From assembly GCA_020636225.1 (NCBI GenBank), contig JACJYI010000007.1, positions 82,352 to 146,351 on the forward strand: a DNA stretch of 64,000 bases, written 5' to 3'. Origin of the DNA: Lewinellaceae bacterium (lineage in GTDB: Bacteria > Bacteroidota > Bacteroidia > Chitinophagales > Saprospiraceae). The notes beneath the pieces are model-generated. The model was not told the DNA's origin, did not search any database, and saw nothing but the letters and a program-made list of their open reading frames with translations. Position numbers and translations under genes: made by a program. This document shows positions 11,874 to 41,274 of this stretch, one piece after another; the stretch's first letter is position 1; every line of letters begins with the position of its first letter.

Positions 11874-12017
11874 CTTTCAACCCCTCAATTTGCCAGCAGA
11901 AACAAAGACAGGAGGAACCGGCAAGCTATAATATTTACGTTCCCTTAGTATTCCTCTCATCTGGAGGTAACATACCGGTAATATCCTTGTGGTTTGATCA
12001 ACCTTACAACCACAACC

Positions 12018-14779
12018 ATGAGGAACATCGCCATTCTATTCGGACTTCTGTTCAGCTTGACGCTCCATGCCCAGACCGGCGTGCTCAGCGGACGCATTAT
12101 CGATGAATCCAACCTGCCACTTCCCGGAGCCACACTCAGCCTGGGCGGTGAACAAGGTGCCTTTTCCAATGCCAGCGGGTATTACACCTTCGCCGCCTTG
12201 CCGGTCGGAACATATACCCTGAACGTATCTTTCATCGGCTATGAAACCCAGGAGGAACAGGTCACCATCACGGCCGGTGAAACGACCGTGCTTGACGTTC
12301 AGCTGACGCCCGGACTGAATCTCCAGGAAGTGGTGGTCACCAGTCAGCTGCGGGGCCAGGCAAGAGCACTGAACAACCAGTTGGCGAATGACAACATCAC
12401 CAACGTCATCGCTTCCGATCAGATCGGTCGGTTCCCGGATGCCAACATCGGGGATGCCATGAAGCGAATCCCGGGCATCAACGTGCAGTATGACCAGGGT
12501 GAGGCCCGGTTTGGCAATATTCGGGGCACCGCTCCCCAGCTGAATGCCATTACCATCAACGGCGAACGGATCCCTTCCGCCGAAGCAGAGATCCGATCGA
12601 TCCAGCTGGACCTGATCCCGTCGGACATGATCCAGACCGTCGAGGTCAACAAGGCCGTCACTCCTGACATGGACGCTGATGCCATCGGTGGCTCCGTCAA
12701 CCTGGTGACCCGCGCCGCTCCCTATGAACAGCGGATCTCCGGCACCCTGGGCGCCGGCTACAACATCCTGGCCGAAAAGCCCACCTTCAATGGCTCCCTG
12801 ATCTTTGGCGACCGGTATGCCGGGAACAAGCTCGGGGTCATCCTCAGTGCATCCTATTTCGACAACAATCTCGGCTCGGACAACGTCGAAGCCGAATGGA
12901 CCTATGACGACGCCAACGACAACGATCGCTTTGACGAAGGCGAGGAAACTTGGGCCGAAGAGATCCAGATCCGGCAGTACTATCTGCAGCGGATCCGTCA
13001 GAGCTATTCCCTGTCGCTTGATTATGCCTTCAACCCGAATCACACCATCTTCTTCAAGGGCATCTACAACCGGAGGAAGGACTGGGAAAGCCGCTATCGC
13101 TCCATCTTTTCCGATATCGAGAATGACAACGGCCAATGGGTAGGCGAGCTGCAACGCGAGGTGAAGGCCAGCACGAAAGACAATAAATATGCCCGCCTGG
13201 AGGACCAGGAGATGCTGAACTATGCCCTGTCCGGCAAGCACCTTCTGGGCAACGCCACCCTGACCTGGTCGGCCAACTACGCCAAGGCATCAGAAGACCG
13301 GCCCAACGAACGATACTACGAGATCGCCACTGACGGAACAGTGGATTTGACCACGGATTTCTCCAATCCGGAAAAACCTTTTGCCCAGGCGGTGGATCCA
13401 CTCTTCCAGAATCCGAGCAGTGCCTGGGAGTTCCCGAGTTGACCGAGGAATTCCAAAACACGACCGATGAGGACATCAATGGCCGCATCGACCTGGATTT
13501 CCCTATCAACCTGGGCAACAACCCGGGCTCGATCAAGATCGGGGGCCGTATCCGCACCAAGATGAAAGACCGGAAGAATGATTTCTACAGTTACGAACCG
13601 ACCACGGATGCTGTCTTTGACAACAGCCTGTTGGATACCGAGAACCTGACCAAGGACAACTTCCTTCCCGGCGACTATGAGGTGGGCACCTTCACGACCA
13701 AGGAATACGTGGGAGGCCTGAACCTGACCGGCCCGGATTTCGAAGGAGAACAGGACTTGAGCGAACTGGCAGGTAATTTCAATGCCTCGGAAAGCATTCT
13801 GGGTGGTTACGCCATGTTGCGTCAGAACGTGGGGAAAAAACTGCTCGTCCTGGCGGGACTCCGACTTGAACAGACGAACCTGGAATACGAAGGATTTACC
13901 TACGACGATGAGGAGGAAACACTGGATGCCACACCCAAGGCCACCAGCGACTATCTGAATGTGTTGCCCGGGATACACCTCAAGTACAATGTGGCTCCGC
14001 GCTCCGTCCTCCGCCTGGCCTGGACCAATACGCTCGCCCGCCCGAACTACTTCGACCTTGTGCCCTACCGGCAGATCGAAGACGGCGAGGAACTGTCGAT
14101 CGGCAATCCGGCTCTGAATGCTACCACCTCCATGAACCTTGACCTGATGGCCGAGCATTATTTTGGCAATGTCGGCCTGGTGTCCGGAGGTGTGTTCTAC
14201 AAGGATGTACAGGACTTCATCGTCAATCAGACCTTTGATGACTATACGTTTGAAGGTCGGGAATGGGCATCGTTCTCTCAGCCCATCAACGGAGGCAATG
14301 CCTCCCTGCTCGGATTCGAGGTGGCCTTCCAGCGTCAACTGGATTTCATCGCCCCTGCCCTGCGAGGTGTCGGTGTCTATTTCAACTACACGTATATTGA
14401 CTCGGAAGTCACAGATTTCAACTTCGAAGGCCGCGAGAATGACAAGCTGGAATTGCCTGGCTCGCCCAAGCACACCCTGAATGCCTCCCTGGCCTGGGAG
14501 GGTCGTCGGTTCACATCCCGCCTGTCCCTGAACTATGCCAGCGACTTCCTCTCGGAGGTTGGCGAAGAATCATTTGGCGATATCCATTACGACCAGGTGA
14601 CCTACCTGGACCTGAATTTCAGTTACAGCCTGAACAAGAACTGGGTAATCTATGCCAACGCCAATAACCTGCTGAACCAACCACTGCGATTCTTCCAGGG
14701 CGTATCTGACCAGACCTACCAGGCAGAATATTATAACACACGCTTTGACCTGGGCGTGAAGTTTGACTTCACCCGATAG
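12018..14779 (+). pseudogene. TonB-dependent receptor (CarboxypepD_reg-like N-domain, plug, barrel) split by a frameshift near 13430-13442
   Basis: Two abutting ORFs (to 13442, and from 13439) together read as one ~920-aa TBDR. It has a signal peptide (MRNIAILFGLLFSLTLHAQ) and ends in a terminal aromatic residue context (FDLGVKFDFTR). The second ORF is in the -1 frame, consistent with a 1-nt loss in ...gagttcccg(g)agttgacc.... It could also be a sequencing error. Confidence 0.6.
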
Positions 14780-16474: not shown

Positions 16475-16732
16475 TGTGGAGTATCTGTACTGTAACTCTA
16501 CTTCAGTAACCCACTATCCCTACAGGTTGAGAAGCTGGATACGGGAGTATATCCGAGAGAAGTAGATGCTGCAATGTCAACGCGCCTTTAGCGCAGCTGG
16601 CCGGACTTCGGTGCAAACACCGGGTGGATGTTTTCCTCAACTTCTCGACTCCTCCACTCCTCCCCCTCATAACCTCCAAACTCCCGCCTACCGGCGAGGC
16701 AGGCATAACCTCAATACCCGGTTGCTAGGGAG

Positions 16733-16970
16733 GACGGAAGACCGGAGACCGGAGACCGTGGACCGAGGACCGAGGACCGAGGACCGAGGACTCCCGGACG
16801 CCTAGTCACATGACTAACCATTAACTGAATCAACTAATAAACGAATAAACTCATACCTGTCCGCCGTGGCGGAAACGAATAAACCCACTAACGCATCTAC
16901 CTGCCAGGAACGAGAGGAAAAACTGCCGGCTGGCAGGGAAGACGGAGGGACGGAGGGAGACCTCAGTACA
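16733..16970. repeat. Composite repeat copy C (9 heptamers, ~150-nt core, GGA-rich tail)
   Basis: gacggaa gaccgga x2 gaccgtg gaccgag x4 is followed by a core nearly identical to copy B (a few substitutions, e.g. cacatgac vs cacctgac). Confidence 0.85.
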
Positions 16971-17385
16971 GATGATTCTTCTCCTCAACTTCTCGACTCC
17001 TCCACCTGCCTGACACCAAGACGGTGAGCTTAAACGTGCCAGATTGCTGAGCAATGTGAAAGACCTGAGGACAGGATTACTTGCAGTGATCCTGAAGATG
17101 GGGGGAAAGTGGGGAGTGGTGGGTGGAGAGTTGAGTGTAGGGAATGGACAGAAGAAATGACGTCCCTCCAAACTCATAAACTCATAACCTCATAACCTCT
17201 CGGATGGAGAGACGAAGGGCCGAATAGGGGCCAGCCTGGCAACCTACTTGAACGACTAGAGGCCAGGATTGCTGGCGCGATCCTGAAGATGGGGGGATTC
17301 AAGCCGCAAAGGCTGCGCCCTGTGGGCGCGCCTTTTGCATATCTGGCCGGCCTTCGGTGCAAGCACCGGGCCAGCCAGATATGCA

Positions 17386-17414
17386 AAAGGCTGCCGACTT
17401 CGTCGGCAGCCTTT
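17386..17414 (-). terminator. Probable native terminator of tRNA-Pro, now stranded next to the displaced tRNA 3' fragment
   Basis: On the minus strand, 7 nt after the tRNA fragment, the stem aaaggctgccgac / gtcggcagccttt forms with a 3-nt loop. It is followed by ttgc. Confidence 0.5.
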
Positions 17415-17420
17415 GCGGTT

Positions 17421-17466
17421 TGTCGGGGTGACAGGATTTGAACCTGCGACCACACGCCCCCCAGAC
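17421..17466. repeat. attL: 46-bp direct repeat, a displaced copy of tRNA-Pro positions ~31-73 plus 2 nt
   Basis: tgtcggggtgacaggatttgaacctgcgaccacacgccccccagac is identical base for base to 41109-41154. The flanks diverge immediately on both sides. Confidence 0.9.
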
Positions 17467-17591
17467 AACAATTTTATACTTTTTGATATCTATCGATTTT
17501 TTCAACACATTCGTATATGACTGATTTTCTGCTATTTATAAGATTCGCTCATCATGGTTGCTTATCGAGAATTGTCGTTATTTTGCAGAAT

Positions 17592-17624: not shown

Positions 17625-18848
17625 ATGGCCTCTGCAAAACTCATTCGATACAAGTATAAGGTGCTCTCTGATGGCTCCTCCCCCATCATGGTTCAGGTCA
17701 TCCATAACAGGAAGATCGCCCGTTATGCCGTAGGATCCGATTACAAATGCACGGAGGAGCAATGGGATGATGCAGCCAGGGAGTTCACCAGAAGATTCTA
17801 TGGGTATAAGGAAAAGAATAAGGTGCTGAAAACGGTGGAGCTTCGGGCTTCCGAAATCCTGGACGACCTGATCAAATCAGGCAAACCCTTCACCTTCCAA
17901 TTGTTCGAAGAGCGATTCAGGTCCATCAGCCGGAATCCACCCACGGTCTACAAGTTCTTCGACATCCGAGTTTCCGAACTGACAGAGAAAGGCAAGGTCG
18001 GTAACGCCCGAGTCTATGCCGATATGAAGCGAGCCCTGATGAACTACTCCCCCAATCCGAATCTGATGTTTCCGGACATTGATTATGCCTTCCTGGACGG
18101 CTTCGAAACCCATCTGCTCAAAAGGAACTGTAGTGGTGGTGGCGTCCATAACTACATGCGCACCCTTAGAGCGTTGATCAATGAAGCAATCCGAAGACAA
18201 TTCCTCCCTGCTGAACTCTATCCATTCAAGAACCAGTTCAATCCCAAAGGCTACTCCCTGGCTCATCTCAAATCCAAAGCCAGTCCCAGGGCATTATCAT
18301 CCAAGGACCTGGAGAAGTTGAAAACCTTTAAGGTTGATCTACATCCCCACCTCAACTTTGCCTACAAAATCTTCATGTTCAGCTATTACAGCCGGGGCAT
18401 GAACTTCAAGGACATCGCCCAACTCCGAAAGGCCGACATCTATGACAATCGCCTGAACTATACACGTGCTAAGACAGGAGGAAACTTCACCATCAAAGTA
18501 TCGGCCAACCTCCAGGCCATCATCGATGAGTTCAATGACCCTGAAAGTGATTACATATTCCCAATTCTCTCCAGTCTTCACCAGACACCTCTCCAGATCA
18601 AATATCGAATCAGCAAGAAGCTCAAGGAAGTGAATGCGGGGTTGAAAGACATTTCAGACCTACTGGATATTGGTACAACTCTTACAACCTATGTAGCACG
18701 TCATACTTATGCCACCACTCTGAAGCGCCAATCGGTTGACATATCCAAGATCAGTCAGAGCCTGGGCCATGCGGATGTCATGACCACAAAGAATTACTTG
18801 GAAAAATTTGAACTCAGTGAAATAGATGAACTGGATGACCTTCTTTGA
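17625..18848 (+). CDS. Tyrosine recombinase / site-specific integrase (Bacteroidota type)
   Basis: 407 aa from MASAKLIRYKYKV. The C-terminal catalytic region has ARHTYATTL and LGHADVMTTKNYLE (the HxxR ... H ... Y pattern). It lies adjacent to attL. Confidence 0.85.
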   Translation: MASAKLIRYKYKVLSDGSSPIMVQVIHNRKIARYAVGSDYKCTEEQWDDAAREFTRRFYGYKEKNKVLKTVELRASEILDDLIKSGKPFTFQLFEERFRSISRNPPTVYKFFDIRVSELTEKGKVGNARVYADMKRALMNYSPNPNLMFPDIDYAFLDGFETHLLKRNCSGGGVHNYMRTLRALINEAIRRQFLPAELYPFKNQFNPKGYSLAHLKSKASPRALSSKDLEKLKTFKVDLHPHLNFAYKIFMFSYYSRGMNFKDIAQLRKADIYDNRLNYTRAKTGGNFTIKVSANLQAIIDEFNDPESDYIFPILSSLHQTPLQIKYRISKKLKEVNAGLKDISDLLDIGTTLTTYVARHTYATTLKRQSVDISKISQSLGHADVMTTKNYLEKFELSEIDELDDLL

Positions 18849-19413
18849 CCAGAGTGTCGTCAGATCAGGTCATTCGGATATATGCTTTCTAGGTGTGGGA
18901 GTCCCATATAGGCAAGATTATAGCACAACCTAGTAAAGGACTTGATCCTTCATCCAACGTTCAAGGTCCATCCATTTTGGAAGTTTCAGCTACTGGAGCC
19001 ATGTCGACAATAGCTACAAGATTCTACAAGGAGCCCCTAAATTGCTTCCGTGTACATCAATCTCAATGCTGAATTATTAAATAAGCAATTGGAGCCACTA
19101 CTACCTCATAATTGCCATTTTGTAAGGCAGCAGCATCAGTATGATGCTCCGACTGCACATGGATGTTTTGAAGATCGCTACTCATTTGCAACGGGTATAG
19201 AATGAAGGAGTTAACAATTGATTATCAAATTTTTACGCAGCACTTTTCCACCAGTCTTCAGATAGCTAAAAACTCCAGAAAACCTGCCATCCAATCTTTT
19301 TTCAACTTTTTCACCTCAAGGGGAACTTATTTGGCAGTTCAATGCTTATTTCAAACATAATGTTTTAACTAGTTGCTGGGAATACATGATATTAAGCAGC
19401 GTGGTAGATTTAT

Positions 19414-20586
19414 ATGGTTAAAAACAAACTCAACATCAAAGAAGTAACTCGTCACATAAAACACACGGTTGAACGGGAACTTTGGGCACGTGCTGCCGGA
19501 CGTTGCCAGTTCATCGGGTGCAATCGGCTACTCTACAAGTCTCCTTTAACCCAGGAGCGGGTAAACATTTCGGAGAAGGCTCACATCTATTCTTTCTCTC
19601 AAGATGGTCCAAGGGGATGGGGCCCGTTCCAAAAGAACCCTGAAAGCCTTAATGATGTCTGCAATCTGATGCTCATGTGTCATGACTGCCATAAGACTAT
19701 AGATCAGGATACAGACGGTTCCAAGTATTCTGGATCGCTGTTGCAGCAATGGAAAAAGGAACATGAACACCGAATTCTCATTGTAACTGGAATTGCAGTA
19801 ACCAGAAAGTCTCATGTGGTATTCTACGGAAGCAACATTGGTGAACAACGTTCTCCACTTCAGCATGAGGACGCCAAATCAGCGATATTTCTAGAACGCT
19901 TTCCGGTATCGGAAAACGCTATTTGCCTATCCATGTCATGCTCACATGAGGATAATACAGTAGGGTTCTGGGAAACAGAATCAGCTCATCTGAAGCGGGT
20001 CTTTGATCAAAAGGTTCTACCTGTGATTGAACATGACCCAATAAAGCATTTCTCATTGTTCGCCCTGGCCCCGATTCCATTGTTAATCCAGCTGGGGACA
20101 CTATTTACGGACAAAATTACCGTGGATACTTATCAGCCGATCCGGGAGCCTAAAGGCTGGCACTGGCAAAAATTCCCTGATGGTTTTGAATTCCTCATCA
20201 AAAAGCCTGAAAAGTATGATGCAGCCCCGGTACTGGTAATCTCATTGAGTGATAATATCAATCATGATAGGATCAAGACGGTCATGGGCGAAGAAGTTTC
20301 TGTATGGGAATTGACCGTACCAGAAGAACACATAGGCAACGACAATATCCGTAATCGTGCGCAACTGTCCATGATGCGTAAAATCATCCGAAAACTTATG
20401 GTCCTGATTAAGGATTCGCATGGATCTACAACTCCACTTTCCGTTTTCCCAGCAATGGCTGTTTCCTGTTCCATTGAAATGGGAAGAGCAAGAATGCCTA
20501 AGGCGGATATGCCTTGGATCATCTATGACCAGAACAACAAGGAAAAGAAGTTTATTAAAGCGATAACCATAGGAAACAGCCAATGA
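19414..20586 (+). CDS. cap5: CBASS effector: HNH endonuclease fused to a SAVED sensor domain (Cap5-like)
   Basis: The N-terminal HNH region reads EKAHIYSFSQDGPRGWG...NLMLMCHDCHKTIDQD. The C-terminal ~260 aa have SAVED-like features (HVVFYGSNIG..., FSLFALAPIPLLIQLGTLF). ATGA overlap with the next gene. Confidence 0.8.
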   Translation: MVKNKLNIKEVTRHIKHTVERELWARAAGRCQFIGCNRLLYKSPLTQERVNISEKAHIYSFSQDGPRGWGPFQKNPESLNDVCNLMLMCHDCHKTIDQDTDGSKYSGSLLQQWKKEHEHRILIVTGIAVTRKSHVVFYGSNIGEQRSPLQHEDAKSAIFLERFPVSENAICLSMSCSHEDNTVGFWETESAHLKRVFDQKVLPVIEHDPIKHFSLFALAPIPLLIQLGTLFTDKITVDTYQPIREPKGWHWQKFPDGFEFLIKKPEKYDAAPVLVISLSDNINHDRIKTVMGEEVSVWELTVPEEHIGNDNIRNRAQLSMMRKIIRKLMVLIKDSHGSTTPLSVFPAMAVSCSIEMGRARMPKADMPWIIYDQNNKEKKFIKAITIGNSQ

Positions 20587-21776
20587 TTACTAATGAACAA
20601 AAACAAGTTGTCATAGACAACATTGTCAAATTGCTGGAACTCCCTGATTCGGCCTATGACAAAGCCCGTAAAAGGTATGAGGATCTCGGGGAGTGGTTTG
20701 ACCGTAATGAATCAACCGTTTCTAGTAACAATCCGCATATTTTCCCACAGGGATCCTTCCGACTTGGGACAGCGATACGTCCACTTGATGAAAATGAAGA
20801 ATATGACCTTGATCTTGCTTGCAAGCTTCAGGATGGGATTTCCAAGGATAGTCATACCCAGGAAACCCTAAAAAACCTGATTGGCATTGAACTGGAAGCC
20901 TATCGGATAGCAAGAGGAATCAAAAGTGAACTTCAACCAAAGCATCGCTGCTGGCGTCTTGAATATCAGGATGACCTTAATTTTCACATGGATATTGTTC
21001 CATGTATTCCAGCAGATGAAAAAAGGCGTATGGCAATATTTGAGTCTATCCGGAGGACTGGATTGGACGAATTTGTGGCCGTGGCCGCGTCCCAGACTAC
21101 GATATCCATAACAGATGACAGGCACAAGGGCTTTCCGCATATATGCGGTGACTGGAACATTAGTAATCCAGAAGGATATGCCAAGTGGTTTGAATACCGA
21201 ATGAATCCACAGCAAACCAGAATCCTACTGGAAATGTCGCAGGTAGACAATGTGCCCTTGTTCAAAAAGAAAACGCCTTTGCAGCGGGCGATTCAGATTC
21301 TGAAGCGCCACCGTGACAACTGGAGCAAGGACAACCCGGAATCCAAGCCTATTTCAATCATTATCACAACTCTCGCTGCAAGGGCCTATAACGGTGAAAC
21401 AGATATTGTAGAGGCGCTTGGCAATGTATTAGAAAAAATGGGTGGTCTGGTAAACCCGAAAAAGCCAAGGGTGCCCAACCCTGTGGACCCGGATGAAGAC
21501 TTTGCCGACCGCTGGTACAGGCCGGATTGTCTGCATTTGCGATTGGAGGAACACTTCTTTTCCTGGCTTTTACAAGCAAATACAGATTTCAGGCATATTA
21601 CTTCTACGAATGATATTGAATTTCTCAGTGATCAACTCGAAGAGAAGTTTTCATTGCGAGTAAATAAGATGGAGCTTAGGGAACAACTGGGAATCAACGC
21701 TACTATCGGTGACATAATGACTCCCAAAACACACACGATTGACCGACAAGACTCGGCCAGACCATGGAAAAAGTAG
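20583..21776 (+). CDS. cGAS/DncV-like nucleotidyltransferase (CD-NTase, SMODS family)
   Basis: It has the PQGSFRLGTAIRP...EEYDLDLACKL motif (GS...[DE]xD Pol-beta NTase signature) and a third acidic residue in LNFHMDIVPCIP. The N-terminal helix pattern (VIDNIVKLLELPDSAYDKARKRYEDLGEWF) is typical of the family. Confidence 0.8.
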   Translation: MITNEQKQVVIDNIVKLLELPDSAYDKARKRYEDLGEWFDRNESTVSSNNPHIFPQGSFRLGTAIRPLDENEEYDLDLACKLQDGISKDSHTQETLKNLIGIELEAYRIARGIKSELQPKHRCWRLEYQDDLNFHMDIVPCIPADEKRRMAIFESIRRTGLDEFVAVAASQTTISITDDRHKGFPHICGDWNISNPEGYAKWFEYRMNPQQTRILLEMSQVDNVPLFKKKTPLQRAIQILKRHRDNWSKDNPESKPISIIITTLAARAYNGETDIVEALGNVLEKMGGLVNPKKPRVPNPVDPDEDFADRWYRPDCLHLRLEEHFFSWLLQANTDFRHITSTNDIEFLSDQLEEKFSLRVNKMELREQLGINATIGDIMTPKTHTIDRQDSARPWKK

Positions 21777-21780
21777 CTCA

Positions 21781-22452
21781 ATGAGAGTATCGGAAATCAA
21801 TGGGCTGAGTCAGTTTCTGTTGGACTATCCTGGCATGTCGACATCTCCTTGCTCTGTTCAAGGCGTTTGCCTGCGTGGAAATTTTCAATTCCAAGCCTGC
21901 GAGTCTGTCGGTGGTAAAATAGTTGATTCCTACAAGCTGGAAATCATTGTTCCCAGCAAATTCCCTCAGGCTCTTCCTGAAGTTACGGAAACCGGTGGCA
22001 AAATAAAGCGTGACGGAAATTTTCATGTCAATTCTGACGGTAGCCTTTGTCTTGGATCGCCTCTGAGGTTGCTGAGAAAGGTCCATAGTGCTCCTAGTCT
22101 GACAGGCTTTGTCGATCAATGTCTAATACCGTACCTATATGCTGTTTCATACAAACGGATAAACGGAGGAGATTTTATTTTTGGCGAGTTGGCTCATGGT
22201 GAACAAGGCATTGTGGATGATTATTCCGCAATGCTTGGGTTGAATGAAAAGCATCAGGTAATTCAGGCCATTCAGCTACTGGGGATTAAGAAACGGATAG
22301 CAAATAAAAAGTCCTGTCCTTGTAGATGTGGGAGAAGACTCGGGGCGTGCCCGTTTCACCACAAATTGAATGAACTTCGCAAAATGGCCCCTGTGTCCTG
22401 GTTTAGGAAGCATGATTTAGTCATCAATACTCCACCATTACCAGTAAAATAG
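21781..22452 (+). CDS. Stand-alone E2 (UBC-fold) ubiquitin-conjugating-like protein (short Cap2-like) with a C-terminal Cys-rich motif
   Basis: GNFHVNSDGSLCLGSP matches the E2 HPN...G.(I/L)CL active-site signature. The C-terminus has KSCPCRCGRRLGACPFHH (SEC-C-like metal motif). The ATG lies 4 nt after the CD-NTase stop. No E1 or JAB domain is present. Confidence 0.7.
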   Translation: MRVSEINGLSQFLLDYPGMSTSPCSVQGVCLRGNFQFQACESVGGKIVDSYKLEIIVPSKFPQALPEVTETGGKIKRDGNFHVNSDGSLCLGSPLRLLRKVHSAPSLTGFVDQCLIPYLYAVSYKRINGGDFIFGELAHGEQGIVDDYSAMLGLNEKHQVIQAIQLLGIKKRIANKKSCPCRCGRRLGACPFHHKLNELRKMAPVSWFRKHDLVINTPPLPVK

Positions 22453-22973
22453 GAGTAATAGCAGAACTTTGAAATCAGCACATTAGACTTGACCAATGGT
22501 AGATGGTCATATTGAACTCCTATATCCTGCAATGCCAGATGACTTGCCCGACTTTTGGCAATTCAAATCCTTTAGAAAGGCAAGCTTGTATTCAACGCAA
22601 CGGCAACAAAAAGATAAAGAGAATCACCCATAAATATTGTCGTTTCTGAGAAAGTTATTCACAGGTGGGTGTAACCCTCTTGAATGGATGAGTCATATAC
22701 TTTGGAATATGCACACTCTTGAAATGTGGCGCCATTACCGCAGTGGGTAGATGGACCAATAAGGGTCAAAATCCGAGAAAGTTTCACTTTATTTCTCCTT
22801 AAGTCGTCTTGAGTCTCCTTAAGTGGCATTTGTCGGACATCCATTAATCCTAGCCATTACCTTAACCACGAAATGAACATCTACCGGGAATTCACCCAGC
22901 TTCGGGCCAGAATACTTACTCTAGCCACGTTGAACAGGTACCCCGATTGGAAATTGTAATAAAGATACCCACC

Positions 22974-23312
22974 ATGATCATCCTCCAGCTCAATGAAGAC
23001 CAACTCAAGAATGCCCTGGAGGAGGTACTGAGGAAGGTGCTCGCTGAAAGGCAACCCGGATTGGAGCAGACAACAACTCCAATACAATTGAAGGAGCTGC
23101 TGACTATTGAGGAGGCTGCCATCTTCCTGAATCTGGCCAAACCAACCATTTACAGCCTCACCAGCCGTCGGGAACTACCATTTTTCAAAACTGGAAAGAA
23201 GCTCTACTTCAAACGTTCAGAACTATTATCCTGGATTGAAAAAGGCAAGCAGAAGACTATAGAGGAAACTGTTGATAATCTCCGTTTGAAACGCAAAAGA
23301 AAAGGAAACTGA
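22974..23312 (+). CDS. Excisionase-family helix-turn-helix DNA-binding protein
   Basis: LLTIEEAAIFLNLAKPTIYSLTSRRELPFFKTGKKLYFKRSELLSWIEKG is the typical MerR/Xis-like HTH_17 pattern of Bacteroidota mobile elements. Start at the ATG at 22974. Confidence 0.65.
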   Translation: MIILQLNEDQLKNALEEVLRKVLAERQPGLEQTTTPIQLKELLTIEEAAIFLNLAKPTIYSLTSRRELPFFKTGKKLYFKRSELLSWIEKGKQKTIEETVDNLRLKRKRKGN

Positions 23313-26975: not shown

Positions 26976-27314
26976 ATGGACAAAATCGCTATAACAATAA
27001 CTAATCTTCGTAAAGAAAAAGGATGGTCACAGACCGACCTGGCTGATAAAAGTGGGGTATCTCGTGAGATGATCGGCAAGTACGAAAGAGGCAAAGCGGT
27101 TCCTTCTGTAGATGCAGCCAAAAAAATAGCCGACGCTTTTGACGTCAGCTTAGATTATCTTGTTGGTGAAGGCATCAATGCCACCTTTGACAAAAAGACT
27201 GTCTCAAGACTTCAGGAAATTCAAAACATGGACTCCAAGTCTAAAGACAACCTTTTTAATATTATCGATGCTGTCATTCGTGATTACAATACTCAGAAGG
27301 CTTATGCTGGATAG
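26976..27314 (+). CDS. XRE-family helix-turn-helix transcriptional regulator
   Basis: LRKEKGWSQTDLADKSGVSREMIGKYERGKAVPSVDAAKKIADAFDVSLDYLVG is a canonical HTH_3 sequence. Confidence 0.85.
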   Translation: MDKIAITITNLRKEKGWSQTDLADKSGVSREMIGKYERGKAVPSVDAAKKIADAFDVSLDYLVGEGINATFDKKTVSRLQEIQNMDSKSKDNLFNIIDAVIRDYNTQKAYAG

Positions 27315-27745
27315 TCTTTTAGATACTCTTCTTTGACTGCTGTTTTTGGTACAATAATCAAGTCTTCTTTTCTATTCCAAGGTATTATACCTGGGATATT
27401 CGCACCCTCAAAATAAGTCAAAAATTGATACCATTCTTCAACTAATTTGACCATCTCTTCTGTAGGTATTTCAAATGGCTCAAACTCATCGAAGTAACCA
27501 CTAACTTTAGTAATTTCGCTTTCAATAAAAATATCACATTTATCTTCTGCCTCTAATTTTATTACTTGTTGACTACTCTTAATTTCTCTTAACTTTTCGA
27601 GAAGGTCAAACACCTTATTAGATTTTGCCAACTCTCTTCTAAAAACATAACTTATAGGGTCATATTTTATCGGCCCAATATTCATTACTGGAACTTGATC
27701 TCCATTCTTTAATATCACTAACTTATAACTTCTTGTCCACCACAT
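27302..27745 (-). CDS. Putative immunity protein for the upstream EndoU toxin
   Basis: 147 aa, acidic, with no signal peptide. It starts 9 nt after the toxin stop on the same strand. The assignment is positional only. Confidence 0.45.
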   Translation of the reverse strand: MWWTRSYKLVILKNGDQVPVMNIGPIKYDPISYVFRRELAKSNKVFDLLEKLREIKSSQQVIKLEAEDKCDIFIESEITKVSGYFDEFEPFEIPTEEMVKLVEEWYQFLTYFEGANIPGIIPWNRKEDLIIVPKTAVKEEYLKDYPA

Positions 27746-27754
27746 ATTTGAAAA

Positions 27755-30097
27755 TTAAGGAAAGTTAGGTAATACAGGAAATGCTGAAATCACATGTCCA
27801 TCAGCATGCAAATAATAATTAATCAGTTGTCCTCCTTGTGTGGTTCCCTCCCATATGTTTCCAGAGGTATTTGTAGGATTATTATTCATAACATACTTCA
27901 ATTCATCCATAACTCTAAATTCATCCCACGAATCAGGCCAAAACGATTTCCTACCTCCGCTACTAAATACAGCTCCATAAAATCCCTCACTTGTTTCTGA
28001 TATTCTATCAACCAATTTTCTGGCATCGTCATTCAAAATAGCAGATATATGATGACGTCCACCTCCACTGTCTCCTCTAAAAATATGCTTTACTGTTTTG
28101 TCAGTTATAGCAGGATGATTTGCATGACTTACAACATCATCAATAGGCTTTATTCCTCTTTGAATCGCAGCAGATAAACCTTCAAGGACATTTGTATTTG
28201 TTTTAATTGTAGTCGGACAATTAAAAGCAAACTCCCACGCCTTAACCCCATCATCACCAAAAGTCTCAATAAACTGTCGGAACTCAGGACTAGCTGAAAT
28301 CAAATCACGATGAAAGGATTGGGCTATCTCATTACTACTGAAGCCATACTTTTCAACAAAATTCTTTAATGCTGGTGAAATATCATCTGTTATGGAACCT
28401 ACTTTAAGCAGTCCATTTGCTTCTTTCTTAACCGTAAATAAATCTGAAGAAACTTTTACAAAATACTTCCCAGCTTTGTAAATGATATACAATTCAGTCC
28501 CAATAATAAATGCAGACAATATTGCATTACCATAGTCACCCTTATATAGATATAATAAACCTTCAGTTAAACCAGCTGCAATGGCAACTGGTGCAGAAGA
28601 GACCACACCTACTGCTCCTGCTACAAATATATATGTATCTACATCCAGCAGAACCTCTCCAGTTTTATCTTTAATTTCATTCAATAATGTAAACATTGAA
28701 AAGGAATCACCCTCCCATTTAGTCCCTAGTGGTTTAAATGACATAAAATAATTGCCACTTGGATCATACAGCCAATAGTCATAAGAGAGACCATCCTCAT
28801 TCCATCGGTAATAAACCCATCCTTCATATGTAAGCTGCCAAAAACCTCCTGTGCCATCAGGCCGAATAACAATATCCTTATCTAATGAATACGGGCCCAA
28901 ATCCATTTTTTCTGGTGCACCTTTATTAGGGCAAGGATATAGACCGTTATTTGTATAGTCAATAACCTTATATTGATTAGTATCACCGTACGTATAGGGA
29001 AGGATATTATTATAGTCATTAAAATTATCCATTCCCAACTGATCATCAAGCCTGTCTGGAACAAGAGTATAATCCCAATCAAAATTATGACTCACCAGGC
29101 TATCAACTCCGCCATCCCTTGCTAAATCGACAAATGGAACTGGGTAGTTTAAATTGTACACGTGAGAAACACAATTCTCTCTGGCATTCCCAACATTGAC
29201 TTGAGCAATATCCCCAATCCCCCAGTGCTCTTTAAACGCATAAGCATTAGTCCCCTCCTTACAATTATGGCGATAACCTGCAAACTTTTCTAAATTAGCA
29301 CTATAAACACAAGACCTGTAAAATACATCATCAATCAAGAATCCATGCAAGGTACCATTAGGTTGAAAAATGGCATTACTCGGATAGCCTGGAAATGTTA
29401 CAACAGCACCCGTCTCTGAAACAAAATTCAGGTTAAAGAATTTTTCAGAAACATCAATCGGGAAGGCACCCGGAATCTTATGCTCCACCATTTCACTCAA
29501 CCCTGAATTGCACTCCAGTGAACGACCTATGCTTGATCTTTCATATCCGCGGCTTTCTTGATTTAAATAGCAACATACACCTTCTCTGAGCAAATAGAGC
29601 AAACGGTCAATTGCCATCATCGATGCAAGCATGTAATTTTCAGGTTTCCCACCATAAAAAACGTCAAACTCAATCTGAACTTGATTTTCAATATATTCAA
29701 TATTAATACAACTATCTAGACTACAATTTAAGCTCAGTTCAACGAATATCTTTGACCAAACACCCTTCACATCAGACAACTTATTAAAAAGCAATCGATT
29801 TTGATTATTTGCGAGTCCTCTGCTTATATCCAAGATATCTGATGTATCCATTTGGGCAGTATTGTGCACATATGCACCAAAATCATAAACTCTAAAGTCA
29901 AGAGGGAAGATGTTTGAATCAAGTGCAATATTTACCTCCTCAAAATAATTGATCACTTCAGAAGCCTTGGCTTCCAATGCAGGTTCATATACACTCCTGT
30001 CCATTCCAGATTGATCTGGAAGCAGGAGGAAGTTGTCTTGAGACCTGGCTTCAACACTAAAAAATAAACCTAGAATGAAAAATATAAATATCCGCAT
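27755..30097 (-). CDS. Polymorphic toxin with a C-terminal bacterial EndoU-type RNase domain
   Basis: It has a signal peptide (MRIFIFFILGLFFSVEARSQ), a long N-terminal region and a hydrophobic segment (YIFVAGAVGVVSSAPVAIAAGL...FIIGTELYIIY). The C-terminus reads KHIFRGDSGGGRHH...SFWPDSWDEFRVMDELKYVMNNNP...GHVISAFPV and matches the EndoU_bacteria pattern. Confidence 0.65.
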   Translation of the reverse strand: MRIFIFFILGLFFSVEARSQDNFLLLPDQSGMDRSVYEPALEAKASEVINYFEEVNIALDSNIFPLDFRVYDFGAYVHNTAQMDTSDILDISRGLANNQNRLLFNKLSDVKGVWSKIFVELSLNCSLDSCINIEYIENQVQIEFDVFYGGKPENYMLASMMAIDRLLYLLREGVCCYLNQESRGYERSSIGRSLECNSGLSEMVEHKIPGAFPIDVSEKFFNLNFVSETGAVVTFPGYPSNAIFQPNGTLHGFLIDDVFYRSCVYSANLEKFAGYRHNCKEGTNAYAFKEHWGIGDIAQVNVGNARENCVSHVYNLNYPVPFVDLARDGGVDSLVSHNFDWDYTLVPDRLDDQLGMDNFNDYNNILPYTYGDTNQYKVIDYTNNGLYPCPNKGAPEKMDLGPYSLDKDIVIRPDGTGGFWQLTYEGWVYYRWNEDGLSYDYWLYDPSGNYFMSFKPLGTKWEGDSFSMFTLLNEIKDKTGEVLLDVDTYIFVAGAVGVVSSAPVAIAAGLTEGLLYLYKGDYGNAILSAFIIGTELYIIYKAGKYFVKVSSDLFTVKKEANGLLKVGSITDDISPALKNFVEKYGFSSNEIAQSFHRDLISASPEFRQFIETFGDDGVKAWEFAFNCPTTIKTNTNVLEGLSAAIQRGIKPIDDVVSHANHPAITDKTVKHIFRGDSGGGRHHISAILNDDARKLVDRISETSEGFYGAVFSSGGRKSFWPDSWDEFRVMDELKYVMNNNPTNTSGNIWEGTTQGGQLINYYLHADGHVISAFPVLPNFP

Positions 30098-30342
30098 TGC
30101 AACTGGGTGATAGTGGCTAAATTCATTCATATGATACTCCATTAATTAAGATCATTAAATATTCCATAAAACAGTCAAAATAAACAGGAATCCATAGTGC
30201 AGCTTCAACGACTTCAAGTAATCTTAATAAGGTTTTTCACCAAAACTAATTCCATCTACGCTTCCATTCAGATAAACGATTCAGGAGAAAACAAAGTCAC
30301 TTTCAATAGTGCTTCAAATTATCCATGTGTAAATATTTCAAC

Positions 30343-33671: not shown

Positions 33672-36600
33672 TTAATGTTGCCAGGGCAGGGTTACATCAA
33701 ACGAACCAAATCCCTTGTTTGTCTTCTGTTTGGGTGAATACCAGAATCGAATTTTTGTATCAGAGTTCACTTCAACAGAGAGGCTTTGTGGCAACCGGAT
33801 GGTGTTATACAGATCTTGACTTTCAGAAGTTGTAAATAGATCCTTCAAACAAGGCGGCAATAATGAATATGGTTGTCCATGGGCATAGTCGGCTAGTGGC
33901 CCATGCCCCTGCTCCCCACAGCCGGTTTGCACATAATCAATATAGTTCATTCTGTCAAACTGGACCTCCATCGCATTCGTCAATAATGGCAGATCTTCCT
34001 GCAAATACCAGGGAATGGTGTTGACCAATACCAACTGGTCGTACCGTTGATTCTCACCATTTATTTCAACAGTTCCTGCTGAATCCTGCATGGCAAAGAA
34101 TACACTTTCGCTATAATAGTCATTTATCTCCGCGCTGAAGAAAAGTACATCAAACGTCAAATCAGCACTCAACACAAACTGACCCGGTGATCTATTGGCA
34201 ATAAAATAGCGGTATGGAGCAAGCCATGTTGTAGAGGCATCATCCACAACTTTCCAGTTGAAAAACGGGGGCAGGCCATTGTACCCATGGATTTCATAAT
34301 CATCAAATCCTTCAAACCCGGACAGGCGGTAGGCCACTGGTTGGCCAGTCAGGATCGTGTCGAAAGACATTGAATTGACCATCGCCTGCATTTTCTCTGT
34401 CCACGTATCATGCAGGCTGGTTCTGAACGGAATGGAAAACAACACCCGTTCGGTCTTCAAGGTATCGTCAAAATCGGTATTGGCCATACACTTGACAAAC
34501 CCATTCATCGAACCACCCGGCAATCCCTGAGGCCAGGATCCTACCACCGGATTGATGAGCTCACGTGATGTGCCATTTCCGGAAAATCCACCATTGCCTT
34601 CACCACCAAAGACAGGAGGTTCAGGAGGGTCATCCACTTTGAATCCCTGAAGGATATCCAATGTATATTGGGTTTCCGGCTCAGTCACCGACCAGTCCAC
34701 CTCAAAATTAACCTGGTTGCTCTGGCAATCATAAAATACAGGTCCTTCGGTGATGACTTCCTCTCCTTGCTTCAGGCGATACATGCTACGCGCATTTACT
34801 GGTACTTTAGCAAACAAGTAGTATTGGCCCGATGCCAGTTTTACATAGGCATGCTTGGCATCGGCATCCCCAGGCAAGAAATATTGCTGTCCCTCATGAG
34901 GATAACTTTCTGCCACATTGTCCGGGAGAATGATATCTGGCAGTTCTCCGGTTGAGAAACTGCTGATCAGCGTGTCACGATCCTGTAGCTCACCATTCAC
35001 CTCCACATACGCATACGCTTTGATCTGGTAATTAAAATCCGGACGTAAAAACTCCTTAAACTTGACGGCTATTTCCATTCCCCCTTCCTGCCTGGACCAA
35101 CTGAATTTTTCATTTCCAGCGCTGGAAATAAAATCAATACGCTCGATCTTGATGAGGTATATGGATGTATCCTGACCCTCAACACGCTCTATGGGTGTAT
35201 CCACCGGATAATTCATGTAGATCACCGGGCTGACGTTCACAGCGACATCCTGAGATCCATGAGCAGGATCCATATAATCAAAGACAACCAGATCCATTAC
35301 ATAGGCCGAAGAATCAGGATTGAGCAATTCACATTTTGTCCCGAATTCTACATTGAAGCGAGTTGAACCTTTGATGATACCCAGTATATTGTAATTCGCC
35401 TTGACAATCCCCTGTGCCCATACGGGATTGGGCAACTGGGCACGCAATAAGATACCAGCTTGTATGTCGGCTATGGTGCCTTTTCGTTCCTTAAAAAGGA
35501 ATTTGAACTTGTACCCCAGGTGAGCGGCCAGGTAGGCATACATCTGCCCCGTGGCATACCAACCATTGATGCCCGGCTTTTCGTAGTTATGCGCACACAA
35601 TGCATCATACTGCATCATGGCCAGATCATACCCCACTGTCAGATTGGCGTAGAACGTAAAGATCCACACCTTGGTGGTATCGGCATTCAGGGTAAATTTC
35701 GACCCATGCATGAATCCGCCACCTTTGGCCATTTGGGAGTTGAGTGTAAACGTTGGTGGTACATCAAAAAAGTCAGATAGCTCACCCTCCAATTCAGCTA
35801 CTTTTGGAAGTCTGGAGCCGAGGCAGAAATAGGTAGTAAAAGTAGCGTCTATACCTGGCACGATACTGACCCGCATACCTCCAGGTTGGTTAGGCTCACC
35901 GACCCACAAATACCAATCTTTTGGGCCTATTTTAAATCGCACATCACTAAGCTTGCCAACATCCGAAGAATCAGCTATTCCTATCAACACATTTCCAAGA
36001 GACATGTAGGACTTGAAGTTGGCATCAAATGTATTTTCAGAGCTATCGTATGATAAATTAAAAAATGCCCTGATTGGTCCTTCTGCACACATACCTTGAT
36101 CCAATGGGTCGCCACCTGACTCATCATAGGTGGAAGGGGCATCAATATTCAAGGCAGCCATACATTGGAAATTGCCAAGAATGTTCAGTGTAAATCCCCC
36201 TGTTTCTTCAAAGATGTTCATGGCAAATGAGGCATTCCCATTCAATGCTTCCTCACTTTCTGCCGTCATGAATGCCATGGCCAGTTTCAATCCCCAGGAA
36301 TGATTGAATGGCGTATAGGTAACCCCTGAAAGACTTAGCCCCAGTCCACGATTCTTTATCATGTCGGTGGTCACCGAATCCTGAGACATAGCCGAAGACA
36401 ATTGCACATTGTCATGTCCACTTGAAGCCATGTTGTACCAGAATCCTCCTCCAAAACCGTTCATTACCAGGGGTGGAAACAGGGGGATCCCACCCGGAAT
36501 GGTGACCATCACATCCACCATGCCATACTTGTATCCTTCATTATGCTTACCGAACATGCCCATGGCCTGTACAGCACCTTCAAATTTGGCAAACTTGACA

Positions 36601-39600
36601 GCTACAGCTCCCTGGAAACCTGTTCCATACTGGCTATCATTTTGATACTTGATCAATGAGCCTTTGATATAATCGACTCCCGTGCAGCTGCCTTCAATGG
36701 TGATCTGGTAGAAATTGAACTTTTCATATTTCCACTTGTGATGAATGGAGCTGGTGTCAATGTATCCCTGAATACCAAAATCAAAGGCCACCTTCAGGTC
36801 AACCCCACTGGTTGTCAGCCCCATGTCGGTCAGGAAAACCGCTTCAATGGCGCCCGGTTGGTTCGGGGCCTCCCGTAGTCCGATCCTGTCAAAATTGAGT
36901 TCAAATCCCAGGTAGTCAATTCCTTTTAATGGAAAGGACCAATATCCGATGTTGCGGATCGCCTTTCCTTTATTGGACAGGATCACCTGATCAAAATGGA
37001 TATCTTCAATGGCCAGGGGGTCGTCGCCATCCTTCTGGATATCCAGAGTTCCGTTGAGGGTAGCAATTACTTCAAATCCACTCCCTCTGTCGAACATGGA
37101 GATGGAGGTATTCGGGTACAAGGTTACATCTGCATAGATAGCTGGAGCCCTCAGGGCACTATTCACTTCCAGGTCAAACTGGAATCGTCCGTATGAATCC
37201 AAAAATGCCAGGTAACTGAAACAATCCATCGGCTTGATGGTATCCGACTCATTCTCTACCGATTTAAACAGAGGCACATGGAGGTATCCCTGCATATTCC
37301 CTTTGTGGAAACGGTTTTCCAGCACATGGATGGCCAATGTATCAATGGAGAAGCCCCATCCCGAACAGGAACCCTGATCCAAAGGCAACAGATTTCCGGC
37401 ATTGATCTGTCCACTGGCCCCATAATCATCGAAGACAAAATGCTGTAGCCCCAAGGTGATGTTACCTGAGTCCTTCCTGGCCATATCCTGGGGCAAGGTC
37501 ACATTCAATTCTTCAAAATATACCCCTTGCCAGGTGGTCTCACCCAGCATCGGATGACTGTATCCATCCGGGTAAATGATGCCTTCCGGGTTCAAGGCGT
37601 CACTGAAATCCAGCCAAACATTGTCCAACCGAAATTTGTACTCTTCTTTTTTGGTGACCGCAAAAGGGTCCACATCAATCTGGACAAGAATATCTGACCA
37701 GGAATCGAAATCACCTACAATGGATGCGGTGACATAACCGTCACTCAGTGGCTCCAATGTGACTGAATCCAGGGGGGTCAAATACTCCCGACAAAACTCG
37801 ATGTTGGCTTCAACAGAAAGCCCTTCAAAACCCGTGCAACCCCAATTGATAAATGTTTGGCCATTCTCTCCGACCAGGGTCAGCCGCATGGCTTTGCCCA
37901 ATGGAATGGGGGGTGAATTGTTCAGGAGCGTTATTTTTCCGGGCACTTCAAGCCCCCCCGGATTGAATGCAATGTCTTCCGCACCAAAGAGGACACGTTT
38001 CCCGGATTGCACCTCCAGAATAAACCAGGCATCCAGAGTGGCTCCCTGAGGGTTGACGACAATGGAATCCAGATAGATGGTATAGGTCAGACTGCCGATC
38101 TCCCGATTCAATTCCAGAGGCTGGCCAAAAACTTCACTTCCGCCTGAGACAGGCATGATTTCAGCCTTGAGTCCCGTCTTTTTCAGTTGGTTTATCTTAT
38201 CGTCTATATCGTCACCTGATACAGACGCATAGGGCCTGGCTTGCTCAAATAAGTTATCTACCCAATCCGGGGCTGCACTACACCCGACTCCGGAGGGGAA
38301 GCTGGTCTGCAAGACTTCCGGTTGGAATGGTCTATGCAGGACTCGTTCCAATGGAGAACTTGAACGGGGCTCCCGGAAGGCAGAAACAACATACTTTCCA
38401 AAACGCAATTGAAAATCTTCAACCAATTTGGCGTACACCAGGTTTTTTACAAAAAGCTTGAGTTTCTGGGCAGTACCGATATGTTCGGCCAACTCAGCTG
38501 AATCCATGGACATGATATACGGCTGAATGAACGCTTGAAAAGGCGCCAATGCATCATCCTGGTTGGTTTGAAGCAGCTGAATGATGGAGTCCAGCAAATG
38601 CTCCATGTTCAGGAGAGTGTGCAGGTATTTGTCGCAATGGTACAGATCAAAATGGTGTTGTTCCAGTGCCATAATCTGTTCATCCCTGCCGGAAAAGTTG
38701 CTGTACTTCTGAGGCTCGCGTACAAAATGCTGATGCAACCCCTCCTGGAAATACTCCCCGTTCTGACCAAACAGGAAAACGGTGTCCAGGCCTTTGGCGA
38801 CGACAATATCCTCCATGTCATCCCGGATATTCCCGCAATTACCCCGATATACCCCAATCAGGCTGTCATTGAGCCAGTCGAACTGTTCGATGCTCCAAAT
38901 GATTGCTGAATCCACTTGGGTTTCATGGGCACTCCAGAATTTTACTCCTTCATCAGTAGGATTCCCTCCGGATGGAATCAACCAGTAATAGGGAGGGCTG
39001 GCCTGAGGGTTACATGGATTACCCAGTGAATCCACTCCAGCCTGGCTGCATCCGTTGGGATTGTAAATGGTTCCAGTTTCCACATGGATTCCATTGGCAT
39101 TAAATCCATTCGGATCAAAATTAGGATTAAAGGGCATCCCCTCCTCCCAACCGGGGTATGGCGGAATCTTCTGATACAACCCACTTGAATCAAAACCAAA
39201 TGAATTCAACCCGGTAATGGGATCAAAGGCATAGGGATCAGGTGAAGGTGGGATGCAACTGAAGGTTGCCGGTGCCGGTTGGACCATCAAATTCTGCATC
39301 CTGGTTCTGGCGTTTGCATCATTTTTGACCTTGATGTCTCCTGATTCGACTATGAAATCAGTGTTCACCAAAATGGATGAAAACTCGACACCTACACGCT
39401 TATTTCCAAAAGGAACGGCCATGGTCCCGGTGCCATTGTACACACCATTCCCTTGATGGAAACGGGTTTTGACAATAACCGGAAACCCGTACGCCAGAAT
39501 CACATCGTTTACCTGGAGACCCGTGTACGGGCTGCCGCTGACCACTGCGGTGTCAGGAGTGGTACCACAAAAGATGTCCTGAAAGGTCGTATCCCCCAGT

Positions 39601-40583: not shown

Positions 40584-41033
40584 CTGCAAACTGTTGAAAT
40601 GATAATACAATCCTATATCGACATGACCGATAAATCCCTTGAGGACAAGAGTTCAATCAGTCATTCCTGTATTTCTGGAATGACGTTTGTGGCACCAGAA
40701 ACAAATTTGCCTCTTTCGGCAAGGTTCATTTCAAAATAAATCTGTCGGTTGCGAAGTAAATATAGAATTTGAATTGAATATGTAGTACATGTTCACAATA
40801 AAAACACAAAAGTTAATACTGACATTACACATATGTGCAAAACGCGAATCCCGGGTAGATGACCGGACAATGAATCGGCTATAACAGGGTATGAGTGGCC
40901 GATCAATTCAATGGTATCCCATCGAAAATGCATACACATCAGGTGACAAACCAATTAATAACGCCTAATGAGGGAATTCTAAACTTGTACAATATGGCGA
41001 AATCGGTCAATGTAGTGCCCAGAGAATACGAAA

Positions 41034-41108: not shown

Positions 41109-41154
41109 TGTCGGGGTGACAGGATTTGAACCTGCGACCACACGCCCCCCAGAC
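41109..41154. repeat. attR: 46-bp direct repeat inside intact tRNA-Pro
   Basis: Identical to 17421-17466. Confidence 0.9.
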
Positions 41155-41184
41155 GTGTACTCTACCGGGCTGAGCTACACCCCG
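41111..41184 (-). tRNA. tRNA-Pro (anticodon GGG)
   Basis: The reverse complement is CGGGGTGTAGCTCAGCCCGGTAGAGTACACGTCTGGGGGGCGTGTGGTCGCAGGTTCAAATCCTGTCACCCCGA. It folds as a cloverleaf with a 7-bp acceptor stem, anticodon loop CTGGGGG and a TTCAAAT T-loop. CCA is not encoded. Confidence 0.85.
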
Positions 41185-41196
41185 AACGACGTGCTG

Positions 41197-41274
41197 TGGT
41201 GGGTGTTACAGGATTCGAACCTGTGACCTCTACCCTGTCAAGGTAGCGCTCTAAACCAACTGAGCTAAACACCC
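41197..41274 (-). tRNA. tRNA-Val (anticodon GAC), CCA encoded
   Basis: The reverse complement is GGGTGTTTAGCTCAGTTGGTTTAGAGCGCTACCTTGACAGGGTAGAGGTCACAGGTTCGAATCCTGTAACACCCACCA. It forms a clean cloverleaf with anticodon loop TTGACAG. Confidence 0.9.

Follow-up and report, generated by a model that had tools for sequence, protein, structure and literature searches.

Among the anti-phage signaling systems based on cyclic oligonucleotides (CBASS), the pairing of the cyclase CdnG with the effector Cap5, an HNH nuclease joined to a SAVED domain, has been called the most abundant (Fatma et al. 2021, PMC8568899). In Vibrio cholerae, VcCdnG (PDB 9woo) makes 3'2'-cyclic GMP-AMP (3'2'-cGAMP), which activates VcCap5 by tetramerization (PMC12804361), and the same nucleotide is the signal of AsCdnG-Cap5 (PMC8568899) and of EcCdnG (bioRxiv 10.64898/2026.03.04.709575). 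Activation of the effector by 3'2'-cGAMP with a switch from dimer to tetramer has been described for VcCap5, AsCap5 and PaCap5 (PMC12804361, PMC8568899, PMC12141522). In a related arrangement, E2-CBASS or CBASS type II short, the cyclase is accompanied by a lone E2-like protein. [quoted passage not shown] Here, we describe a locus in 64,000 nucleotides of Lewinellaceae bacterium DNA (GCA_020636225.1, contig JACJYI010000007.1), the whole of which we refer to as the window. The locus is very probably an intact E2-CBASS anti-phage operon of the order cap5-cdnG-E2, carried on a 23.7-kb integrase-bearing tRNA-Pro(GGG) island of an uncultured member of the Saprospiraceae (Bacteroidota). As such it adds another example of a CBASS cassette that is very widespread and moves horizontally, in this case placed on a defined tRNA-Pro island of an uncultured Saprospiraceae, and its only non-routine point is a long E2 with a SEC-C-like motif that co-varies with a Pro-Trp cyclase tail and falls outside the published Gly-based E2-CBASS mechanism.

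The three genes (Table 1) are co-directional, with genes 1 and 2 overlapping by 4 nt (ATGA) and genes 2 and 3 separated by a 4-nt gap (CTCA), so that the coordinates and junctions given in the initial annotation, which had been made from the DNA alone, are correct. The open reading frame (ORF) of gene 3 opens at 21739, and an internal ATG at 21781 gives a protein of 223 aa; this start is the choice of the gene callers in five independent assemblies and agrees with the N-termini of 27 homologues. The short motifs on which the initial annotation relied are all present in the translations, namely AHIYSF, GPRGWG and NLMLMCHDCHKTID in gene 1, QGSF and YDLDL in gene 2, and HVNSDGSLCLG in gene 3. A PADLOC run, which it had proposed, recognizes all three genes, with matches to an endonuclease effector model at 3.1e-140, to a cyclase model at 6.3e-120 and to the E2 model PDLC00859 at 1.4e-87 over residues 2-212 of 223. 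Profile E-values of 1e-87 to 1e-140 for the three genes exclude chance matches, and a standard defence-finder would probably have called the locus. Failure of profile searches to place gene 2 in the CD-NTase/SMODS family or gene 1 in SAVED had been named as grounds for giving up this interpretation; both were placed there, and all three domain assignments hold.

Gene 1 encodes an HNH nuclease fused to a SAVED domain, as had been proposed. Pfam detects SAVED at 1.6e-41 (residues 194-386) and HNH_2 at 7.7e-7, NCBIfam also returns a SAVED match, and the whole protein can be aligned with solved structures of Cap5 (7rwk at 3.7e-67, residues 22-383; also 8ysq and 7rwm); 7rws is a further match. The HNH part keeps His57 (in AHI), Asn84 and His93, and the zinc site Cys31/Cys36/Cys89/Cys92 is kept as well. 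An N-terminal HNH domain with its catalytic His and zinc finger, a SAVED domain at the C-terminus and a length of 390 aa agree with what is expected of Cap5, including the expected size of about 380-390 aa. In addition, this gene with its cyclic-nucleotide sensor domain overlaps the cyclase gene by 4 nt, the position in which a CBASS effector would be looked for. By analogy with the characterized Cap5 proteins, we infer that the same activation by 3'2'-cGAMP and the same dimer-to-tetramer switch would apply here.

The product of gene 2 had been taken for a nucleotidyltransferase of the cGAS/DncV-like type (CD-NTase), and this is borne out by Pfam matches above the family cut-offs to the DncV-like nucleotidyltransferase family PF21654 (1.1e-12) and to SMODS (PF18144, 1.1e-8), and by a cGAS assignment in NCBIfam. 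Its three best PDB matches are all CdnG enzymes: VcCdnG (9woo) at 5.6e-116 over the full length, SmCdnG (8hsb) at 3.5e-30, and 7ljn, which is named BdCdnG in PMC12948482. The clade is read from these nearest characterized homologues; the clade A enzyme DncV of Vibrio matches gene 2 at 2e-3. The residues of the CD-NTase signature, Gly57-Ser58, Asp75, Asp77 and Asp137, are present and are invariant in homologues. In VcCdnG, mutagenesis has validated residues Q55/G56/S57, D73/D75, K118/R120, D135, S193, K244/R247, S261 and E308/F310 (PMC12804361), and in the alignment to 9woo these correspond to Q56/G57/S58, D75/D77, K120/R122, D137, S194, K241/R244, S258 and E305/F307 of gene 2. All of the mapped residues are conserved, and nearly all are invariant among close homologues. 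Because these functional residues of VcCdnG are retained, the signal can be predicted by homology, and the product of gene 2 is most likely 3'2'-cGAMP. The initial annotation had held that the nucleotide could not be read from the sequence, which is too pessimistic given the homology to VcCdnG and AsCdnG (PMC12804361, PMC8568899). An AlphaFold2 model of the cyclase built from 29 sequences of 79-91% identity has a mean predicted local distance difference test score (pLDDT) of 42 and is unusable, and we draw from it no claims about the C-terminus or the activation loop.

Gene 3 is less easily classified. Beyond the E2 model of PADLOC, which matches almost the entire protein, the E1-E2 models of PADLOC match weakly or through their E2 part only, Pfam and NCBIfam return no match, and a PDB search with the sequence gives a chance-level match only (E 0.21). 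Its 588 database homologues are all unnamed or 'hypothetical', with a Pfam domain on none of the 120 listed; some plasmid-borne relatives carry the RefSeq name 'SEC-C metal-binding domain-containing protein'. In an alignment of 28 sequences reaching down to 57% identity, His82 and Cys90 are invariant within the motif FHVNxDGxLCLGSP, which looks like the HxN...C arrangement typical of active E2 enzymes, and the equivalent of Cys90 is kept even in a 230-aa relative detected by a hidden Markov model (HMM) at 3e-45. Also invariant across the 28 sequences are four cysteines, C179/C181/C183/C190, that form a SEC-C-like zinc motif (CPCxC...C). An AlphaFold2 model made from the same alignment has a pLDDT of 87 and a predicted template modeling score of 0.82, and its best PDB folds in Foldseek are UFC1, the ubiquitin E2 variant (UEV) domains of TSG101/Vps23, UBE2N and UbcH5, with probability ~1 over ~125 residues. 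From these matches to UBC and UEV folds, the N-terminal half of the modeled protein is UBC-like, and the C-terminal ~90 residues make up, in the model, an additional module of helices with the zinc motif. A scan of the ten other island proteins covered detected neither an E1 nor a JAB domain, which places the layout with CBASS type II short, or E2-CBASS. Both the description of gene 3 as an E2 with neither an E1 nor a JAB module and the type II short assignment therefore stand.

Of the described systems, the CdnG-Cap5 pair of V. cholerae (PMC12804361) has the closest solved cyclase, whose validated donor- and acceptor-pocket residues are all conserved here, and like the operon in the window it has an HNH-SAVED Cap5 as its effector and a cyclase tail of the [KR]PW type, with KPW plus three residues in VcCdnG. 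It differs in its host, a Vibrio and thus of another phylum than Saprospiraceae, and in that its third gene lies outside the published work. A near-identical copy on a Vibrio gigantis plasmid has the order cap5-cdnG-long E2 seen here, annotated as 'SAVED domain-containing protein / nucleotidyltransferase / hypothetical protein', and its cyclase, a near-twin of VcCdnG, ends in PKPWFKQ. Similarly, the Asticcacaulis and Lactococcus systems (PMC8568899) consist of three genes, in which a conserved protein that belongs to no Pfam family accompanies Cap5 and CdnG, and signal with 3'2'-cGAMP. Sequence identity to them is moderate and their third gene was left uncharacterized, whereas here the third gene has a predicted UBC-like fold, an invariant His and Cys and the SEC-C-like zinc motif; the description by Fatma et al. 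of their third protein (PMC8568899) fits gene 3. The E. coli system EcCdnG-Cap2-Cap3-Cap5 (bioRxiv 10.64898/2026.03.04.709575) has a clade-G cyclase, Cap5, 3'2'-cGAMP as its signal and a ubiquitin-like regulatory logic, to which correspond at the locus a clade-G-like cyclase, Cap5, the same nucleotide as predicted signal and a probable logic of the same kind, but it includes Cap2 (E1-E2) and Cap3 (JAB), and no E1 or JAB domain was found here.

Serratia SmCdnG-SmE2 (PMC12948482; Yan et al. 2024, cited there) combines a clade-G cyclase with a lone E2 and no E1 or JAB, and the locus combines a clade-G-like cyclase with a lone E2 in the same way. Both cyclases are also 'long', with a C-terminal extension past the catalytic core. 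The two differ in the E2 itself, for SmE2 is a protein of ~18 kDa that links to a C-terminal Gly, whereas gene 3 encodes 223 aa with a SEC-C-like module beside a cyclase tail of the type [KR]PW plus 2-5 residues, and SmE2 is absent from the top 50 Foldseek matches of the gene 3 model. Given a different E2 family and a cyclase that has no C-terminal Gly, the SmE2 mechanism is not simply transferable to this locus. The initial annotation had considered the role of the lone E2 to be unreadable; that role has been worked out for SmE2 (PMC12948482), so the statement is too broad.

The tail of gene 2 reads ...TPKTHTIDRQDSARPWKK and ends in ...DSARPWKK. For 109 close homologues aligned without gaps, ...DSARPWEW is the consensus, in which Pro394 and Trp395 are invariant and there is no terminal Gly; G370 is the only conserved Gly within the last 40 residues. 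To place this tail we used one representative for each 50%-identity cluster of about 1.8 billion proteins and took the top 150 matches to the cyclase, 85 of which are full length. P[WY] occurs within the last 12 residues in 58 of the 85, usually as [KR]PW, and in 56 of these 58 the motif is followed by 2-5 variable residues. Endings of the other kind, [FY][YH]G plus 0-7 residues or GF[GA], terminate only a few of the 85. The neighborhoods of nine cyclase representatives from different clusters were then compared, with a second member of the window's own cluster counted together with the window. Beside the PW-tailed cyclases (that of the window and those of L050, L051, L052 and L057), the next gene encodes 217-244 aa, has no Pfam family and matches the long-E2 HMM at 1e-45 to 1e-125. 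Beside the [FY]YG-tailed cyclases (L049, L053, L055 and L056), the next gene encodes a 142-153-aa protein of the Pfam E2-CBASS family PF26395, the family that the precomputed Pfam annotation assigns to short E2s next to Gly-tailed cyclases. The short E2s of L049 and L053, the two that were tested, do not cross-match the long-E2 HMM (E 0.29-0.69). Tail type and E2 type thus co-vary perfectly in this small sample, at 5 versus 0 and 0 versus 4 independent clusters (Fisher p = 0.008). In addition, a natural CdnG-E2 fusion of 616 aa (P0313) has a long SEC-C E2 directly after a QPW motif. Millman 2020, as quoted in PMC8568899, gives the short E2 family as PF14457.

The published mechanism, in which the E2 processes and links the C-terminal Gly of the cyclase, is based on a single E2 family, and gene 3 belongs to a second, longer family with a zinc motif that is paired with cyclase tails of Pro-Trp plus a few variable residues. 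No published treatment of the [KR]PW tail or of the long E2 family was found in the searchable literature. Tentatively, and with the chances against us, we suggest that long SEC-C-type E2s and [KR]PW-tailed CdnG enzymes may form a distinct branch of E2-CBASS, with the window and VcCdnG as members and probably also the operons that Fatma et al. studied, and in which the E2 would recognize, and possibly cleave after, the C-terminal Pro-Trp. Bacterial ubiquitin-like processing or conjugation of C-termini would in that case not be limited to ends in Gly or Ala.

A separate group of cyclases is apparent in the same survey. Of the 150 best representatives, 49 are ~470-620 aa long (including P0243, P0246 and P0279-P0281), and most of them carry an additional conserved domain at the C-terminus, which ends in ...HW[VI]ECF[IV]VKNGxCVARSGxFxVNI. 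The long-E2 HMM matches only the SEC-C fusions P0295 and P0313 among these proteins.

The cassette is found far beyond the Saprospiraceae. There are 7,362 relatives of the cyclase at E <= 1e-20, and the best 120 of these, at 79-100% identity, belong to Sphaerochaetaceae, Nitrosomonas, Chlorobium, Desulfuromonas, Nitrospinota, Cyclonatronaceae and others. Such similar cyclases in such distant taxa point to frequent horizontal transfer, and cassettes of unchanged layout are present in many phyla, with 80-90% protein identity. In Desulfuromonas acetoxidans, for example, the gene order, the 4-nt overlap and the 4-nt gap are all the same, and the cassette is surrounded by ordinary metabolic genes; the 6 kb to each side contain no integrase. 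In a comparison of the window with Desulfuromonas, the ratio of nonsynonymous to synonymous substitution (dN/dS) is 0.08 for cap5, 0.09 for cdnG and 0.14 for the E2 gene, with dS above 1, indicating that the operon is intact and under strong purifying selection. Five public assemblies, including the metagenome-assembled genome (MAG) GCA_020437245.1 at NCBI, carry the same island, and leader and cassette are 100% identical among them over 3,604 bp. A phage origin of the cassette was considered and rejected, as a phage collection gives one distant match only, at 32% identity.

By analogy with the characterized systems, the operon would work as follows. Upon phage infection the clade-G-like cyclase would make 3'2'-cGAMP, the SAVED domain of Cap5 would bind it, the Cap5 dimer would become a tetramer, and the HNH domains would degrade DNA, such that the infected cell would die ahead of phage release (abortive infection). 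The E2-like protein would most likely tune the cyclase through the invariant Cys90, acting on the conserved tail, which would consist of [KR]PW and a short disposable extension; the analogue is SmE2 acting on the Gly-ending tail of SmCdnG. A 2026 preprint reports that a surface loop of clade-G cyclases is cleaved by a phage prohead protease, and cleavage of this kind is a candidate for the phage trigger here.

It is important to point out that several observations weigh against this interpretation of the locus. The conserved C-terminal Gly of the published E2-CBASS mechanism, found at or near the end of CD-NTases of the SmCdnG-SmE2 kind, is not present in gene 2. Gene 3 is outside the Pfam E2-CBASS family PF26395 to which the short E2s belong, its precomputed Pfam field being empty, as are those of its 120 listed homologues. 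The Foldseek matches of its model have modest E-values (2e-3 to 1e-1) and TM-scores of 0.35-0.54. The cyclase is called clade-G-like from its nearest characterized homologues. No sigma-70-like site is found on the plus strand of the leader, in a scan that does not cover Bacteroidota promoters, so that a promoter was not found. Lastly, we infer protection, product and trigger alike by analogy.

The same facts about tail and E2 family could be accommodated by a gene 3 product that performs no thioester or isopeptide chemistry and instead binds the [KR]PW tail non-covalently, as a UEV-like or zinc-dependent adaptor that inhibits or recruits the cyclase. Such an adaptor would suit a cyclase with no terminal Gly, and [KR]PW plus 2-5 residues is the ending in 58 of the 85 full-length representatives; the UEV domains of TSG101 and Vps23 are among the top fold matches of the model, the short E2 sequences compared lack the SEC-C-like zinc module, and the family differs from PF26395. 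Against an adaptor stand Cys90 and His82, set out as in active E2s and invariant down to 57% identity, with the Cys retained even in the 230-aa relative, and a variable short extension after a conserved motif resembles a processed precursor. We therefore regard the adaptor as possible but unlikely.

Two further explanations concern the cassette as a whole. It could mainly serve the island, by stabilization or by exclusion of competitors in an addiction-like manner, with phage defence as a by-product, given that it lies beside the integrase of a mobile island which bears an EndoU polymorphic toxin as well and that the same cassette has spread over many phyla at 80-90% identity. However, cloned by themselves, characterized operons of the CdnG-Cap5 and E2-CBASS kinds confer protection from phages (PMC12948482; bioRxiv 10.64898/2026.03.04.709575), and the Desulfuromonas cassette sits among ordinary metabolic genes with no integrase in the flanking 6 kb, which makes this explanation improbable. 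Least probable is that the cassette is a decaying, non-functional remnant. The last residue of gene 2 is Lys, as opposed to Trp in 101 of 109 close homologues, and no promoter was predicted in the leader, but the three ORFs are full length with intact catalytic residues, dN/dS is 0.08-0.14 across all three genes, and the cassette is identical in five assemblies. A phage-defence operon of the E2-CBASS type accordingly remains our preferred interpretation.

Table 1. Features of the operon and of the island that carries it, in positions of the window
Feature	Position	Strand	Size or form	Basis
cap5 (gene 1), HNH-SAVED effector DNase	19414-20586	+	390 aa	ORF listing, Pfam, PADLOC, PDB
cdnG (gene 2), clade-G-like CD-NTase	20583-21776	+	397 aa	ORF listing, Pfam, PADLOC, PDB
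Long E2-like partner (gene 3)	21781-22452	+	223 aa	PADLOC, alignment, AlphaFold2 model
Leader upstream of cap5, presumed promoter region	18849-19413	+	565 bp, GC 0.396	
Island end, displaced copy of tRNA-Pro(GGG) 3' half (att repeat)	17421-17466	-	Perfect 46-nt direct repeat	
Other island end, repeat almost wholly inside the intact tRNA-Pro(GGG) gene	41109-41154	-	46-nt direct repeat	
tRNA-Pro(GGG)	41110-41184	-	Intact gene	
Tyrosine integrase, Bacteroidota type	17625-18848	+		Pfam Arm-DNA-bind_5 5e-10, SAM_5 1.7e-19, Phage_integrase 4e-12
HTH_17 (excisionase/AlpA-like) DNA-binding protein	22947-23312	+		Pfam HTH_17 1.4e-14

The leader is bounded by the stop of the integrase and the start of gene 1. 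Its length and AT-rich composition were correctly described in the initial annotation, but it is free of ORFs only at a threshold of at least 60 aa, as it contains three of 51-59 aa. An Rfam search of the 565 bp returns no match, and the leader does not align with the 586-bp leader of the Desulfuromonas cassette; a conserved leader element, whether a regulatory RNA or a small gene, was rejected on these two results together with the lack of a sigma-70-like site on the coding strand.

That the operon is island cargo, as had been supposed, is confirmed by the tRNA 3' end, directly repeated at each border, by the integrase and by an atypical base composition. GC content is 0.446 in the island as compared with 0.58-0.59 in the host flanks, and within the island it is 0.447 in the cassette and 0.396 in the leader. 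Gene callers give the integrase 407 aa in three related contigs; in two it has 443 aa, matching a longer ORF that opens at 17517. The tRNA-Pro(GGG) gene is arranged in tandem with tRNA-Val(GAC) at 41110-41274 on the minus strand, and of this pair nothing but the tRNA-Pro 3' half recurs at the far island end. A protein in the flank, with POR/PFOR domains as called in the independent assembly L002, shares 88-90% identity with proteins from MAGs of Saprospiraceae, on which the assignment of the host to this family is based. Immediately outside the left island end, at 16600-17420, are a perfect 19-nt direct repeat at 17088/17279 and a 27-nt repeat at 16631/16979, which may be remnants of earlier integrations.

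Apart from the operon, the island contains surface proteins sorted by the type IX secretion system (T9SS) and an EndoU-type toxin. At 27302-30142 (minus strand) lie this toxin, a 795-aa protein whose EndoU nuclease toxin domain is C-terminal, and after it a 147-aa ORF that matches no family and is a candidate immunity gene. GC content of this stretch is 0.36-0.38, and it varies among otherwise identical islands, being called as 791 aa in some and as 425 + 364 aa in another, a pattern typical of polymorphic toxin cassettes. At 33672-40610 (minus strand) there is a 2,312-aa ORF that has no Pfam match at all and adjoins fn3 and T9SS-sorted surface proteins. Located 4.5 kb from the CBASS operon, at 26976-27314 (plus strand), an HTH_3 protein matches the PADLOC capH model at 1.6e-15 and probably represents a generic regulator of the XRE type. 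The presence of another defence system on the island was considered and discarded, since PADLOC detects none and the capH match has no CapP nearby.

Elsewhere in the window, a TonB-dependent receptor (TIGR01782) is split between two ORFs on the plus strand, 11994-13442 and 13439-14779, which cover positions 1-384 and 408-868 of the profile. L002 shows this split too, in parts of 474 and 446 aa, and it may thus be a real frameshift or a pseudogene rather than a sequencing error.

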